NCBI GenBank assembly: GCA_963849325.1
Contig: CAWKHF010000005.1
Location: forward strand, 544,001 to 608,000
Length of the DNA: 64,000 nucleotides
Direction of reading: 5' to 3'
Source of the DNA: an uncultured Planctomycetota bacterium
Lineage (GTDB): Bacteria > Planctomycetota > Planctomycetia > Gemmatales > Gemmataceae
Position numbers and translations under genes: made by a program. The notes beneath the pieces are model-generated. The model saw only the letters and a list, made by a program, of their open reading frames with translations. It did not search any database and was not told where the DNA came from. Below are positions 26,167 through 63,319 of the stretch, in pieces. Every line of letters begins with the position of its first letter. Position 1 is the first letter of the stretch.

Positions 26167-26233
26167 CGTTTCGCCGCGACGCGCAGCGGAGCGCGGGAGC
26201 ACTCCCGCGCTCCCTGCGCGTCGCGGCGAAACG
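26167..26233. repeat. REP-like palindrome, family A (GTTTxGCCGCGACGCGCAGCGGAGCGCGG...)
   Basis: Inverted repeat; copies at 36498 and 63256. Confidence 0.88.
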
Positions 26234-32789: not shown

Positions 32790-32949
32790 GACGACGGAAC
32801 CCTCGCGCGGTACACGAGATTGACAGCGGGGCCGGTCTTTGACTATTCTCCCCGTTTTCGCCGGGCGGACAACCTCGGGCACATGAATTGCTCCACATCG
32901 GAAGCGTCTTGGACCGATAAGGAATTGTTTGCCGGGAGGATCCTCCGTC

Positions 32950-35900
32950 ATGGCCGAAACTTCCAAGAACGAAATGACGACCCAGCTTGCCGAGGGTCTC
33001 TCCGTCAGCCGAACTGCGAACGGCAATGGGCTGACGTTGACCATCCGCCTTCAGGGTCCATCCGATTGCGTACTGCACTGGGGTTTGAGCCGGCGTCCCG
33101 GCGGGGCGTGGAATCGCCCTCCCCAGTCGTGCTGGCCGCAAGGGACGACGCCCGCCGACGGTAACGCCGTGCGTACCCCATTCGCTGGCGATGGTCAGAA
33201 AGAGGTGTCCATCCACCTCGATTCATCCGGCCCGTGGCGCGGCCTGGCCTTTGTCGTCCACGCCCCGAAAGAAAATCGCTGGATCAAGAGCGGCAATACG
33301 GACTTCGTCCTGCCGCTGCCCCGTCCGCGGGGCCGCTCGCCCGAAGAAGCGTTGACTGAGTGGGCGCCGGAAGGAACGGGGACGCGCCAGGTCCATTCGC
33401 TCGACAACGGTGATCGCGTCGCGGCGGCTATCGCCGAGACGCCCGACGGCGTGCGCGTCCGCCTGGTTTGCGACGCCGCGGCGCCGCTGGCCTTGCACTG
33501 GGGCTTGGCGTGGCAGTTCCAGCAGGAATGGACGCTGCCGCCGGAGAATTACCGGCCGGAAGGCACGACGCTCGCCGACGACAAGGCCGCGCGCACGCCG
33601 TTCACCGAGCGCGAGGGGTTGCAATACCTGGAGCTGCGCTTCCCCCGACCGTCCGAGGGACCGGGGCCGCGCGGCCTGCGCCTCGTTCTGCATCAGGCCG
33701 ACGAGGGCTGGCTCAAGAGCGACGGCAAAGACCTGTACTTGCCGCTTGTTCCAGGGCGAGCCGGACGCGCGACTGTCCGCGCCGAAGCTGAGCGAGTTGG
33801 CCGAGCAGATCGTCGGCGCCGAGAAGGGTGCCGGTTCGTGGACCCTGATGCACCGCTTCAACCTATGCCACGATCTGCTGGGGTCGGTACAGGATGACGA
33901 GGAGGGGCTGGCGCTGCTGTTCGCCTGGCTGCGCTACAGCGCCATCCGCCAACTCGATTGGCAGCGGCGCTACAACACCAAGCCGCGCGAGCTGAGTCAC
34001 GCCCAGGATCGACTGACGATACGGTTGGCCGGCGTCTGGCGCCGGAACCCGCCGGAGTCTCCGCAGTCGCTTCTGGGTGCGGCAAATGCTCACGACACTC
34101 GGCCGCGGCGGCGAGGGGCAGCGCGTGCGCGATGAGATCCTGCACATCATGCACCGCAATCATCTCAAGGAAACGGCCGGCAACTTCATCGAGGAATGGC
34201 ACCAAAAGCTGCACAACAACACCACGCCCGACGACGTCGTCATCTGCCAGGCTTACCTCGCCTTCCTCCGTAGCAACGGCGACGCCGGCACGTTCTACCG
34301 CACCCTGGAGCAGGGCGGCGTCACGCGCGCAGCGGCTGCAAGGCTTCGAGCGCCCCATCCGCTCCGAGCCGATCCTCTACGGCGACCGCAAGGATGCGCT
34401 GATCGGCGAATTCGAGAACTTCCTGAAAATCCTCAAGTCGGTGCATTCGGGCACGGACCTGGACAGCGCCGTCGCCGCGGCGCGCGGCCGACTCGACGGC
34501 GGCATGAACCGGCAACTCGATGGCCTGCTCGGCCCTGCGCGGGAAGGGTCCGGTCGTGGATGCGCTGGCCGGTACCGTCACGGCGGCGCGCGAAGGTCTG
34601 GCGAAGGCGCTGGCCGCCATCGGCGACGACGCCGGCCGCCGCGACCTGCTCTTCCTCGATCTGGCGCTGGAGGAATACCTGCGTGCGGCGATCGAACGGC
34701 AGAACGTCAGCCAGCTCCGCCGCGATGCGTTGGCGGCGCTGGTGCGGCGCGGCCCTGCGAAACCTCCAGCTCACGGCCGATTCCGCGGAGCTGGCCATCT
34801 GCGCCGGACACTGGGCGGCGCTGTTGGCTCGACCGCGCGACGGCCGCGACTGGGCGCTGCATGCCCGCAGCGTGACCGATCGCGTTTCGCGCTGGGTCGC
34901 AGGACTTCACCGGCGCCATCTATCGGCGCCTGCAACCCAAGGCCGAGGCGCTGGGCGCCGCCTTCGGCGCCGAGAAGTGGACGGTGCCGTTGTTCAGCGA
35001 GGAGGTCATCCGCGGCGGGCCGGCCTTCACCCTTTCGCTGCTCTTGCGTCCGCTCGACCGTCTTCTGCGCGAGGCGGCGGGACTGGGCGGCTGGCAGGTC
35101 ATCAGTCCCGCTCGCGCCACCGGCAAAGTCCGCGCGGTCAGTCGCCTCCACGATGTGCAGGCGGAGCGCTTCGCGGAGCCGACCGTGCTGGTCGCCGACC
35201 AGGTGAGCGGCGACGAGGAGATGCCCGAGGGCGTCACGGCGGTCCTCACCTCCGATTCGCCGGACCTGGTGTCGCACGTGGCCGTCCGCGCCCGCAACGC
35301 CGGCGTTCTCTTCGCCACCTGCTTCGACGCCGACGAATACCAGAACGTCTCAGGCGCTGGCGGGCCAATTCCTCAGCCTGCGCGTGACGCCGGGCGGCGA
35401 CGTGCAATATACGGAATCGTCCAAGTCCGTAGGGTGGGCCGAGTCTTCGAGGCCCACCGAGGAGCGTGGTGGGCCTCGTTCCTCGGCCCACCCTACGAAG
35501 ACCACGAAGGCCACCGCGTCCTTCCACGGATGGGTAGTTGGACAGGACCAGTTCGCCCCCGGCCTCGTTGGCGGCAAGTCGAACAACCTCAACGGCCTGC
35601 GCGGCCGACTGCCCGACTGGATCCGTCTGCCGAAATCCATCGCCCTGCCCTTCGGCGTCTTCGACCGCGTGCTGGCGGACGCGGCCAATCGTCGTCTGCG
35701 CGAGGAATGCAAAACCCTGATCGCGGCGGCCGAGACGAAGGGGACCGAAGCGTTGGCCGAACTGCGAGCCAAGCTGCATGGATTGACGGCGCCGACGGAA
35801 TTGCCAGCGGCGCTTCGGGAGGGCTGGCAGCGCGCCGGCCTGCCGCCGGTGCCGTGGGAGCAGACCTGGCACGCCATCCGCCGCGTCTGGGCGTCCAAGT

Positions 35901-36495
35901 GGAACGATCGCGCCTACCTGTCGCGCCGCGCTCGCGGTGTCCCGCACGACAGCCTGCAAATGGCCGTGCTTATTCAGCAAGTGGTGCCGGCCGATTATGC
36001 CTTCGTCATCCACACGGTCAATCCGCTCACCGGCAACCACGGCGAGATCTTCGCCGAGGTCGTTCTGGGCATGGGCGAGACGCTGGTCGGCAATTATCCC
36101 GGCCGGGCGCTCGGCTTCGTCTGCCGCAAGACCGACCTCAAGCCCGAGATACTCTCCTATCCCGGCAAGAGCGTGGGCCTTTACGGCAAGGGCGTGATCT
36201 TCCGCTCCGACTCCAACGGCGAGGACTTGGAGGGCTTTGCCGGCGCGGGACTTTATGATAGCTTCCTGGCCGAGGAGCCGGAGCATCGCGCTGCTCGACT
36301 ACCGCAACGAGAAGCTGGTCTGGGACGCGAAAGGTCCGCGACGACCTGCTCCGCTCGATCGCTCGGGCCGGGCTGGAAGTCGAACGTCTGCTCGGCTCGG
36401 CCCAGGACATCGAAGGAGCGATCGCCGGCGGCGAGCTGCACGTCGTCCAGACCCGTCCGCAAGTGGGACTGGACGACGACTCTCTCGCCGCGTAA
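32950..36495 (+). CDS. Alpha-glucan, water dikinase (GWD1/SEX1-like), ~1180 aa, several frameshifts
   Basis: Two CBM45-like modules (LHWG...W..PP....P.GT.....A.RTPF); LMHRFN; RQLDWQRRYNTKPRELSHAQDRL; GQRVRDEIL; EEWHQKLHNNTTPDDVVIC; PDLVSHVAVRARN; VWASKWNDRAY; FRSDSNGEDLEGFAGAGLYDS; VVQTRPQ. Confidence 0.93.
35428..35497. repeat. GTAG-type REP palindrome inside the GWD coding sequence
   Basis: CGTAGGGTGGGCCGAG...CTCGGCCCACCCTACG with internal GGCCCACC/GGTGGGCC arms. Confidence 0.85.
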
Positions 36496-36497
36496 AC

Positions 36498-36561
36498 GTT
36501 TAGCCGCGACGCGCAGCGGAGCGCGGCGAGCGCCGCGCTCCGCTGCGCGTCGCGGCTAAAC
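36498..36561. repeat. REP-like palindrome, family A
   Basis: GTTTAGCCGCGACGCGCAGCGGAGCGCGG...CCGCGCTCCGCTGCGCGTCGCGGCTAAAC. Confidence 0.9.
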
Positions 36562-36576
36562 CAGAAAGGATTCATC

Positions 36577-37457
36577 GTGACCCCGCGCATCCGCATCGGC
36601 AATCAGACGGCCATTTCGTGCGCCGACCCCTGACGCCTTTCCGCTTCGCCCTGCGACAACGGCTTCGACGCCTTCGAGTGGTTCGCCGACAAGAAGGTAC
36701 ATGCCGACGGCCGTAGCACCGGCTGGGACGAGCCGGACATGGACGCGGCCACGCGCCTCGCCATCCGCGACGCCGGCGTGGCCCATGACGTGCTCTTCAC
36801 CGTCCACGCCCCCTGGCAGGCCAACCCACTGCACGGCGACGGCATCCCCCTCCTGATCCGCAGCATCGATTTCGCCCGCGACATCGGTGCCGACCTGGTC
36901 AACCTGCACCTGTACATGGAGGAGGGGCCGGACGGTTACGCGCGGCGCTGGCGCCGGTGCTGCGGCATGCCGCCGAAGCGGGGCTGCGCGTCAGCATCGA
37001 GAACACGCCGCACACGACGCCGGACGACTTCAACGAAACTTTCGCCCGTCTCGCCCAGCTGGACGCCGTCCCGTCCGGGACGGTCGGCATGTGCCTGGAC
37101 ATCGGCCACGCCAACCTCTGCGCCGCCACCCGCAACAACTTCGTGCGCTACCTCGACGCCCTGGCGCCCGCGGTGCCCATCATCCACGTCCACGCCCACG
37201 AGAACCACGGCGATGCTGACAGCCACCTGACGCTGTTCACCGGCCCCTCGAAGGACGATGACGCCGGCGTGCGCGCGTTCCTGGATCGCCTGCGCCGCCG
37301 CCATTACCGCGGTGCCGTGATCCTGGAGCAGTGGCCCGACCCGCCGCAACTCCTCGTCGAAGCCGCCACCCGACTGCGCAGCCTCCTCGGCCTGCGTCCT
37401 CTCGCCGCGCCGGATGGCGCGACGACGGAGAAAAGCACGTCCCGGCGAGGCGCCTGA
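36577..37457 (+). CDS. Xylose isomerase-like / AP endonuclease 2 TIM-barrel metalloprotein (frameshifts near 36630-36655 and 36945)
   Basis: AAAGGA RBS + GTG; RIGNQT, FEWF, TVHAPW, IENTP, CLDIGHAN, HVHAHEN.GD.DSH and ILEQW motifs. Confidence 0.8.
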
Positions 37458-37993: not shown

Positions 37994-39277
37994 ATGCAAC
38001 AAGACATCAAGGTTCCGTGGGTAGCAGTCGTCTCGTTTCCTCCGGGGCAAACGCCCGCCGAGGGGAAACACTATATCGGTAACGGGCGCGACATTCTCCT
38101 GGAGGGTTTCCACTGGGAGTCCCACCAGGGCGGCGCGTCCGATCCTGCAACGGGCATGCGCAAAAGTTGGTATCGCGTTCTCGTGGAGAACGCGGCAGCT
38201 GTCAAGGCGGCCGGTTTCACCTGGGTGTGGTTCCCGCCGCCGTCCGATTCATTGGCGCCGCAGGGATATATCCCACGGCGTTGGAACGTCCTGGATACGG
38301 CTTATGGCAGCGAGGCCGAACTGCGGGCGGCCATCCACGCGCTGGAACCGGTGCGGGCGATGGCCGACGTGGTCATCAATCACCGCGTCGGCGTCCACAC
38401 CAGCGGCGCCGACTTTGACGATCCGCCATTTCCCAATAACCGAGCGGCCATTGCCCGCGATGATTCTTCCGGCGTCGGCACCGGCAATCCCGACTCCGGC
38501 GAACACCATGCCGCCGGCCGCGATCTCGACCATACCAACCCCGATGTCCGCCACGCCATCACGGACTACTTGCGCAAGCTCAAAGCGATCGGCTTCCAGG
38601 GTTGGCGCTACGACCTGACCAAGGGCTACGCCGGCCGTTTCATCGCCGAGTACAACGACACCACCGAGCCGGGCTTCTCCGTCGGCGAATTCTACGACGG
38701 CGATCGGCAGAAGGTGACAAGTTGGATCGACGCCACCGGCGGCAAGACGACGGCGTTCGATTTCCCCACGCGCTATCTGCTGTATGAGGCGTGCCTGAGC
38801 GACGATTACGGCCGGCTCCGTTCGCACAACAGCGGCCGAGTGGTTCCCGGCGGTTTGCTCGGCCTGTGGCCGAGCCGTTCGGTGACTTTTCTGGATAATC
38901 ACGATACGGAAAGTCGCCGCGATTACGAACATAGCTGTCACAACGACGGCACGCGGCACTTTCCCGGCGAGACGGTCGGCATGGGTTACGCCTACCTGCT
39001 GACGCATCCCGGTACGCCGTGCGTCTTCTGGCCGCACTTCTTCGATTGGGGCCAACCGACGCGGCAGCGAATCGAGCGCCTGATCCACCTGCGACGGCAC
39101 TGCGGCATTCATTCGCGCAGCCACGTGGACATCAAGGAGGCCGGCCACGGATTGTACGCGGCGATCATCGACGGCAAGGTGGCGATGAAGCTCGGTCGTC
39201 GTGGCTGGTCGCCCGGCGGCGGCTGGCACCTCGCCGTCGACGGCGACAAGTTCGCCGTGTGGATGCGATCCAACTAA
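37994..39277 (+). CDS. Alpha-amylase, plant/GH13_6-like, no signal peptide
   Basis: ILLEGFHWES, VWFPPPSDS.APQGYIP, DVVINHR, catalytic WRYD / VGEF / FLDNHD, GYAYLLTHPG.P, C-terminal LYAAIIDGKVAMKLG beta-domain. Confidence 0.93.
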   Translation: MQQDIKVPWVAVVSFPPGQTPAEGKHYIGNGRDILLEGFHWESHQGGASDPATGMRKSWYRVLVENAAAVKAAGFTWVWFPPPSDSLAPQGYIPRRWNVLDTAYGSEAELRAAIHALEPVRAMADVVINHRVGVHTSGADFDDPPFPNNRAAIARDDSSGVGTGNPDSGEHHAAGRDLDHTNPDVRHAITDYLRKLKAIGFQGWRYDLTKGYAGRFIAEYNDTTEPGFSVGEFYDGDRQKVTSWIDATGGKTTAFDFPTRYLLYEACLSDDYGRLRSHNSGRVVPGGLLGLWPSRSVTFLDNHDTESRRDYEHSCHNDGTRHFPGETVGMGYAYLLTHPGTPCVFWPHFFDWGQPTRQRIERLIHLRRHCGIHSRSHVDIKEAGHGLYAAIIDGKVAMKLGRRGWSPGGGWHLAVDGDKFAVWMRSN

Positions 39278-63255: not shown

Positions 63256-63319
63256 GTTTAGCCGCGACGCGCAGCGGAGCGCGGCAAGCCCCGCGCTCCG
63301 CTGCGCGTCGCGGCTAAAC
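63256..63319. repeat. REP-like palindrome, family A
   Basis: Arms near-identical to the 36498 copy. Confidence 0.9.

Follow-up and report, generated by a model that had tools for sequence, protein, structure and literature searches.

Gene content and domain architecture of the locus

The window analysed here, a stretch of 64,000 nucleotides from an uncultured, soil-type Planctomycetota bacterium of the family Gemmataceae (assembly GCA_963849325.1, contig CAWKHF010000005.1, positions 544,001 to 608,000), contains what is, by its sequence, a full-length gene for an alpha-glucan, water dikinase (GWD) of the GWD1 type. Between 31.0 and 38.5 kb of the window, no single long frame covers this gene, and overlapping plus-strand open reading frames (ORFs) in three frames carry GWD sequence. 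Comparison by tblastn with eight intact orthologues from related genomes resolved the gene into ten pieces that succeed one another in frames 1>2>3>1>2>3>1>2>3>1. The junctions between the pieces are tight, with no residues lost, and each of the nine breaks corresponds to one surplus base. The corrected frames comprise 1183 positions, with an X at each break, and contain zero stop codons. The encoded protein adds a new, uncharacterised bacterial representative to a known enzyme family and lies in an error-prone assembly. Coordinates of the gene, its domains and the associated features are collected in Table 1.

Table 1. Features of the GWD locus and related loci. Positions are those of the window, unless a locus label (L) precedes them.
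Feature	Position	Strand	Basis
GWD1-type alpha-glucan, water dikinase gene, ~1180 aa, ten frame pieces	32950..36495	+	tblastn with eight intact orthologues, Pfam
Start codon ATG	32950		direct reading
Stop codon TAA	36493-36495		direct reading
Shine-Dalgarno-like GGGAGGA, 9 nt 5' of the ATG	32934..32940	+	direct reading
Ig/CBM45-like module 1	32998..33318	+	best PF23166 stretch, residues 24-130 of the ORF from 32929; alignment
LHWG of module 1 (second conserved Trp within NRWIKSG)	33073-33090		
Ig/CBM45-like module 2, limits approximate	33430..33750	+	second PF23166 stretch; limits from alignment
LHWG of module 2 (plus GWLK)	33493-33510		
GWD-specific central helical domain, limits approximate	33790..35085	+	match of orthologue P0001 to potato GWD1 structure; alignment
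LMHRFN	33845-33862		
RQLDWQRRYNTKPRELSHAQDRL	33947-34015		
EEWHQKLHNNTTPDDVVIC	34191-34247		
FSEEVIRGG of the central domain	34993-35019		
Phosphohistidine domain	35089..35349	+	PF22973, E 1.2e-34
Catalytic His codon CAC, inside PDLVSHVAVRARN	35275-35277		
Nucleotide-binding (PPDK_N / ATP-grasp) domain, GGKSNNL to VVQTRPQ, limits approximate	35528..36470	+	PF01326, E 1.1e-24; alignment
VVQTRPQ	36442-36462		
Nine frame breaks, one surplus base each	~33748, 34061-34064, 34329, 34534, 34748-34751, 34899, 35350-35356, 36290, 36330	+	tblastn and DNA inspection
Internal palindrome, 16-nt arms, inside GWD at the linker	35428..35497	+	
Perfect 31+31 nt REP-like palindrome, between GWD stop and TIM-barrel gene	36498..36561	.	
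Xylose-isomerase-like / endonuclease-IV-like TIM-barrel gene, ~280 aa	36574..37457	+	PF01261, E 3.3e-16; tblastn
Plant-type alpha-amylase, 427 aa, intact	37994..39277	+	ATG 37994; PF07821 (C-terminal Alpha-amyl_C2) and PF00128
TIM-fused dikinases, 1170-1250 aa	L035:8443-11958 (-), L036:8087-11662 (-), L037:3402-7004 (-), L038:2513-6247 (+), L017:8759-12219 (+)		

Three of eight frame pieces matched Pfam families, namely PF23166 (Ig_N_CWD1, two stretches, E 2.9e-41), PF22973 (GWD1_pHisD) and PF01326 (PPDK_N), and the other five, which span the central region, matched no Pfam family. The same Pfam set, including both Ig_N_CWD1 stretches, was found in the intact orthologue of a related genome, G009, to which the window protein is 81-82% identical over the kept tree columns. 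For the central domain, residues 291-717 of orthologue P0001 match the structure of potato GWD1 (PDB 9ha9/9qvi) with an E value of 4.3e-86. A sequence-only reading of the window had proposed the complete GWD1 domain order over ~1180 aa of stitched frames, and the Pfam matches, the match to PDB 9ha9 and the alignment agree with it. The motifs on which that reading relied, from LMHRFN through the catalytic His to VVQTRPQ, and the Shine-Dalgarno sequence that it had noted were all located where it had placed them.

In an alignment of 11 sequences, four of them from named eukaryotes, 124 of the 1183 window positions are invariant, and these take in the catalytic His motif, the EE..R motif and both Trp residues of each carbohydrate-binding module 45 (CBM45)-like module. 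The SH and VRARN columns of the ...SHV.VRARN motif are conserved with Gossypium, Picocystis and Gloeochaete. In both modules the LHWG Trp and the downstream Trp align with plant and algal sequences; we take these residues to be the published starch-binding Trp of CBM45. The FSEEVIRGG segment of the central domain aligns with FTEEIIRAG of potato. As described in the sections available of the paper on the structure of the potato enzyme (StGWD1), residues E900, E901 and R904 of the central domain face the His domain, near the catalytic His (PMC13553574). Judging from the motif, the EE..R of the window protein would correspond to these three residues.

Comparison with known dikinases

The plant and algal GWD1 enzymes (potato R1/StGWD1 and Arabidopsis SEX1; EC 2.7.9.4), which serve plants in the phosphorylation of starch, have the same five-domain order as the window GWD and share with it the catalytic His motif, the EE..R motif and the CBM45 Trp residues. 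Sequence identity between the G009 orthologue and Gossypium GWD1 amounts to 43% over residues 170-1169. However, the plant proteins are longer, at ~1470 aa versus ~1180 aa, because two DUF7067 stretches form a long linker between their CBM45 modules. This linker is missing in the window GWD, which is also without a transit peptide. The GWD of the glaucophyte Gloeochaete, at 1177 aa, is short like the bacterial forms. The partner genes differ as well, with a TIM-barrel gene and an alpha-amylase in the window, whose host is bacterial, in place of the SEX4/LSF2 phosphatases and beta-amylase of plants.

Phosphoglucan, water dikinase (PWD/GWD3; EC 2.7.9.5) has the same dikinase core, with the His domain ahead of the ATP-binding domain. 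According to the text available of one source, it carries an N-terminal CBM20 (PMC8703398). Neither the window pieces nor P0001 had a Pfam match to CBM20 at E <= 0.001-0.01; the only matches of this kind were the two Ig_N_CWD1 stretches. The TIM-fused divergent dikinases of related bacteria, described below, might play a PWD-like role.

Phosphoenolpyruvate (PEP) synthase, pyruvate phosphate dikinase (PPDK) and rifampicin phosphotransferase have a homologous ATP-grasp domain and the swivelling phosphohistidine mechanism, but their domain order is reversed, and they are without the CBM45-like modules and the GWD central domain. Likeness to PEP synthase is limited to the ATP-binding domain, where PEP synthases of the PDB were matched at E values from 7e-11 to 3e-9. 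The dikinase models of NCBIfam, a collection that holds no model for the GWD family, scored 24-71 bits against cut-offs of 598-1700 and covered only residues ~920-1170 of 1179. An assignment to PEP synthase or rifampicin phosphotransferase was therefore rejected on domain order and scores. The sequence-only reading had named best matches to such enzymes, in a protein without the GWD middle region, as one outcome that would overturn it; the middle region is present and matches the potato GWD1 structure, as given above.

Frame breaks and integrity of the gene

The nine frame breaks have probably been introduced by the assembly. The gene, which otherwise looks intact, is read in this way because its corrected frames are free of stops, its invariant positions are kept, its branch in the tree is not long, intact frames occur in the genus and frameshifts are found assembly-wide. 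Ten other GWDs share 124 invariant positions, all of which the window GWD keeps; in the same test, the intact G009 protein keeps 124 of 125. The terminal branch of the window GWD in the IQ-TREE tree under the posterior mean site frequency (PMSF) model measures 0.10, versus 0.12 for G009. Within the genus, six assemblies built from short reads have an open GWD frame of 1185-1250 aa. In the two remaining assemblies with few contigs, G007 and G002, the gene has one break and at least three, respectively, at sites other than those in the window.

The assembly of the window genome totals 8.16 Mb in 14 contigs, with a completeness score of 84.7%. Among 45 other genes compared with their orthologues in G009, a short-read assembly, 15 are broken. 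Their 24 shifts, 15 of +1 and 9 of -1, fall within 71,025 bp and correspond to a rate of 0.34 per kb; some antisense ORFs may have passed the filter. For instance, the Pfam model of a glycosyltransferase family 5 (GT5) glycogen/starch synthase gene (G000:C8:88876-89653, G000 being the genome of the window) was matched in three separate frames. Clumps of breaks also occur elsewhere in the assembly, with five in 3.3 kb at C4:195814 and five in 1.8 kb at C10:229909.

It is conceivable that the gene is a true pseudogene in this strain, the nine insertions in GWD and three breaks in the adjacent TIM-barrel gene being real and marking a glucan-phosphorylation module in decay. The breaks do form one patch of poor sequence, from ~33.7 to 37.0 kb, which crosses the boundary between these two functionally linked genes at a density far above that of the 45 other genes and leaves the flanking panB, MOSC-domain and amylase genes intact; moreover, GWD was not found in two of the ten other genomes of the genus, so that loss may happen. 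However, nine real indels would have left zero stops in the correct frames, all 124 invariant positions unchanged and a terminal branch no longer than that of intact G009. All nine breaks are +1, whereas gene decay in bacteria is usually deletion-biased. Frameshifts are common across the assembly, which reaches its completeness score of 84.7% despite consisting of only 14 contigs. Taken together, these observations make decay very unlikely.

We thus favour the reading of a functional bacterial gene, orthologous to the GWD1 of plants and algae, that looks broken only through single-base indels of a long-read-type assembly, and from the sequence comparisons we would put its probability at roughly 0.7. 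Several points weigh against it. Nine breaks in 3.55 kb are ~7 times the measured rate (Poisson p 5e-6 if errors were evenly spread), and the error reading therefore needs clumped errors. No near-identical intact copy was found when the piece 35357-36289 was compared with longer proteins, the best match being 73% identical. A bacterial GWD member with a biochemical assay was not found in the literature. Finally, the plant starch pathway is not simply copied in this bacterium: the genome, which is 85% complete, yielded no beta-amylase of glycoside hydrolase family 14 (GH14), and a phosphatase of the SEX4/laforin type was not searched for.

Placement in the bacterial chromosome

The GWD gene is native to the bacterial chromosome. 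Its GC content is 0.680 compared with 0.661 for the window, and the GC content at third codon positions (GC3) is 0.844 over the corrected frames, compared with 0.858 for panB and 0.780 for the alpha-amylase gene. The 16-nt arm of the palindrome inside GWD has 9 copies in the genome, at about five loci. The palindrome that follows the GWD stop codon resembles repetitive extragenic palindromic (REP) elements, and the 20-nt core of its family, CGCGACGCGCAGCGGAGCGC, occurs 484 times in the genome, with 471 occurrences of the terminal 11-mer; elsewhere in the window the core is found at 26175 and at 63263/63293 (63256-63319). G009 carries a REP-like copy at the same intergenic spot between GWD and the TIM-barrel gene (L010:4856-4909). 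The gene order GWD, TIM barrel, alpha-amylase was recovered by tblastn in all nine genomes of the genus that carry GWD. In G022, which belongs to another genus (g13), the amylase gene lies on the opposite side of GWD.

A gene whose family the literature knows only from eukaryotes, and which lies in a region of low assembly quality, might be suspected of being a eukaryotic contaminant or the product of a chimeric assembly join. This explanation is rejected because synteny is conserved in the genus, the same order standing on contigs of eight other genomes. In addition, the gene is without introns, its GC3 resembles that of the host's genes, elements of a host REP family are found within and beside it, and in the trees it clusters with further sequences from Gemmataceae at starred support, so that contamination retains next to no probability. 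The sequence-only reading had placed the gene in the bacterial chromosome on the basis of host-like high-GC codons, an internal palindrome and a nearby copy of a repeat family; each of these features was recovered here, and the synteny adds to them.

Neighbouring genes

On the 5' side, GWD is preceded by panB and a divergent gene with a MOSC domain, both intact. On the 3' side lies the TIM-barrel gene, whose three frame breaks comprise a -1 and a +1 near 36630-36665 and a -1 near ~36945. The closest relatives of its product that have a name are the cobamide-remodelling phosphodiesterase CbiR, whose model it matched with 47.5 bits, below the cut-off of 105, and MJ1311 (PDB 3wqo), matched at an E value of 1.5e-9. 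Across 16 homologues the invariant residues are H78, H112, E143, D176, H179, H205, H207, H209, E210, D216, H218 and E252. An AlphaFold2 model of the protein (predicted local distance difference test score, pLDDT, 86.6; predicted template modelling score, pTM, 0.85) is nearest to MJ1311 3wqo, then to the apurinic/apyrimidinic (AP) endonuclease of African swine fever virus, and then to ketose 3-epimerases. The TIM fold alone cannot separate a phosphoesterase from a sugar epimerase, because the neighbours of the model include both.

The intact plant-type alpha-amylase that follows has as its nearest solved structures barley AMY2 (1amy, E 1.5e-75) and a rice amylase. The amylase gene lies beside GWD throughout the genus, where its identity ranges from 83 to 87%, above the 66-77% of GWD itself. 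By eye, no signal peptide is evident at the N-terminus of either GWD or the amylase. Elsewhere, the genome holds a GT5 synthase, a glycosyltransferase family 35 (GT35) phosphorylase and several enzymes with CBM48.

Distribution among bacteria

The phosphohistidine domain family PF22973 was found in 11 of 41 related genomes including G000. The genus contributes 8 carriers among its 10 other genomes, and the family 10 among 24; in the sister family f2, none of 15 genomes had a match. Of 401 genomes sampled evenly across the phylum, ten were above the cut-off, again including G000, and the other nine belong to two further planctomycete families, eight to f44 and one to f10. Each of these nine genomes has two copies. 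In the genome of the window, PF22973 had a single match, and no second dikinase was found.

Five of the second copies, one from f10, three from f44 and one from Gemmataceae genus g5 (G014), were scanned by Pfam or tblastn, and in four of them a TIM barrel replaces the CBM45-like modules. The fifth (G079) had no Pfam match to a TIM barrel, but is 40% identical to the TIM-barrel protein of G009. In these TIM-fused dikinases, an endonuclease-IV-like TIM barrel stands at the N-terminus, ahead of a GWD-type His domain of divergent sequence and PPDK_N, and the gene lies directly after GWD in f44/f10 and genus g5. The first gene of the tandem is an orthologous GWD (44-46% identity), and the TIM barrel of the second is homologous to the free-standing one (40-58%). 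The two arrangements differ in that the TIM barrel forms the N-terminal domain of a second dikinase of 1170-1260 aa in f44, f10 and g5, whereas in the genus of the window it is a separate gene of ~280 aa followed by the plant-type amylase. The TIM barrel is thus conserved in association with GWD, be it as an adjacent gene or within a fusion protein. Two genomes with the tandem arrangement, G175 and G228, also have a GT4/GT5 glucan synthase-like gene, which flanks GWD on the side away from the fusion gene.

In wider protein collections, a word-indexed search with the G009 protein gave 2325 matches at E <= 0.001 among 8000 scored candidates, and among the best 120 of these the IMG name, where there was one, was "alpha-glucan, water dikinase". 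An exhaustive search of 50% representatives gave 6817 matches at E <= 0.001 and 608 at E <= 1e-30. Organism names were obtained for eight clusters out of 30 representatives looked up, and the distribution across phyla rests on these few clusters: four are eukaryotic (Gossypium GWD1, Picocystis, Rhodomonas and Gloeochaete) and four bacterial (Desulfobulbaceae/Deltaproteobacteria, two of Nitrospirota, and Fibrobacteria). A contig search for related loci with a single protein returned five close loci of Gemmataceae or Planctomycetota. By these matches, bacterial GWD genes are common and are already labelled as GWD by IMG. The sequence-only reading had regarded the window gene as an exceptional, eukaryote-type gene, and this part of it did not hold, since the same architecture recurs in a second planctomycete family, in proteins assigned by their NCBI names to Nitrospirota, Desulfobulbaceae and Fibrobacteria, and, within the genus, in 8 of 10 other genomes.

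Phylogeny of bacterial and eukaryotic dikinases

A FastTree phylogeny of 115 rows united all 42 bacterial-like rows in one clade with a Shimodaira-Hasegawa (SH)-like support of 95, and the IQ-TREE PMSF tree of 56 rows united its 24 bacterial-like rows with an SH approximate likelihood ratio test (SH-aLRT) support of 84. The rows are mostly metagenome proteins, and the labels "bacterial-like" and "eukaryote" beyond the eight named clusters were assigned from clade, length and composition. In the PMSF tree, a branch with starred support of 100 parts 52 GWD rows from four TIM-fused dikinases, and the same split is seen in the FastTree phylogeny and in a tree of 30 rows. When the PMSF tree is rooted on the TIM-fused dikinases, the bacterial clade falls among the eukaryotic groups, with short backbone branches and support of 84-92. 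In the 30-row tree (LG+G4), a set picked after the first trees had been seen, the backbone collapses and Gloeochaete is drawn towards the bacteria; an approximately unbiased (AU) test on the same set did not reject monophyly of the eukaryotes (p 0.237).

In all, these trees place the window gene within a broad bacterial GWD group. Only group membership is concluded, and the trees do not resolve which way the gene passed between bacteria and eukaryotes, because the backbone is weak, the root sits on a long branch and most rows are metagenome proteins.

Proposed mechanism and substrate

A mechanism can be proposed by homology with potato and Arabidopsis GWD1, with the docking of the His domain on the central domain modelled on the available description of StGWD1 (PMC13553574). 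The C-terminal ATP-grasp domain would bind ATP, and the swivelling His domain would accept its beta-phosphate on the catalytic His. The phospho-His domain would then swing to the central helical domain, the presumed site of the EE..R residues, where a glucosyl hydroxyl (in GWD1, that at C6) of an alpha-1,4-glucan gripped by the two CBM45-like modules would receive the phosphate, with release of AMP and Pi. Phosphorylation may in turn open ordered chains for the adjacent plant-type alpha-amylase, and the adjacent endonuclease-IV-like TIM-barrel protein is a candidate for removal of the phosphate.

The substrate is most likely the storage glucan of the cell itself, because GWD and the amylase show no signal peptides and the genome encodes a glycogen synthase, a phosphorylase and CBM48 enzymes. 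That this bacterium may phosphorylate an insoluble glucan, as the sequence-only reading had suggested, is plausible. An active dikinase of the GWD family could also act on an acceptor other than a storage alpha-glucan, such as another polysaccharide, a glycoconjugate or a different hydroxyl, as the bacterial paralogues with a TIM barrel in place of the CBM45-like modules may hint. Yet both CBM45-like modules of the window protein keep their Trp residues, its whole central domain is conserved with plant GWD1, and next to GWD lie genes for an alpha-amylase, in the genus of the window, and for a GT5/GT4 glucan synthase, in family f44, all of which renders a different acceptor unlikely.

A more far-reaching proposal is that GWD, the TIM barrel and the amylase form a bacterial cycle of reversible glucan phosphorylation, in which the TIM-barrel protein would be a new class of phosphoglucan phosphatase replacing SEX4/LSF2, and that this module was the source of eukaryotic GWD. 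We offer it tentatively, as a rather doubtful extension of the storage-glucan reading. If it were true, some Planctomycetes would store an ordered, starch-like glucan.

Relation to the literature on starch phosphorylation

The starch literature sees GWD as an enzyme of starch-storing eukaryotes, a view that full-length orthologues with conserved partners in several phyla of free-living bacteria challenge. A 2026 preprint treats GWD, in the portion accessible, as specific to such eukaryotes (10.64898/2026.09.25.754361), and the words bacteria and prokaryote are absent from the available text of the StGWD1 structure paper (PMC13553574). Full-text literature searches, whose coverage excluded most subscription journals and supplements, returned no paper on bacterial GWD. 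The bacterial GWDs are simple, intron-free and shorter enzymes for structural and mechanistic work, and through them the origin of starch phosphorylation becomes testable. The TIM-barrel protein conserved alongside them offers a specific candidate for an unassigned step. For such work, an intact orthologue like the one in G009 (L010:4917-8453, minus strand) is a better object of study than the window gene, because the deposited sequence of the window is ridden with errors.

Palindromes in the GWD linker

Different palindromes were observed at the same linker of GWD in related genomes. The element of G009 (L010:5885-5967) has (AATGCAG)n arms of 31 nt, and that of G010 (L013:6055-6114) is of the REP type, with the arms GTTTAGCCGCG...CGCGGCTAAC. 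It seems that elements resembling REP sequences or miniature inverted-repeat transposable elements (MITEs) can insert in this linker and are tolerated there.

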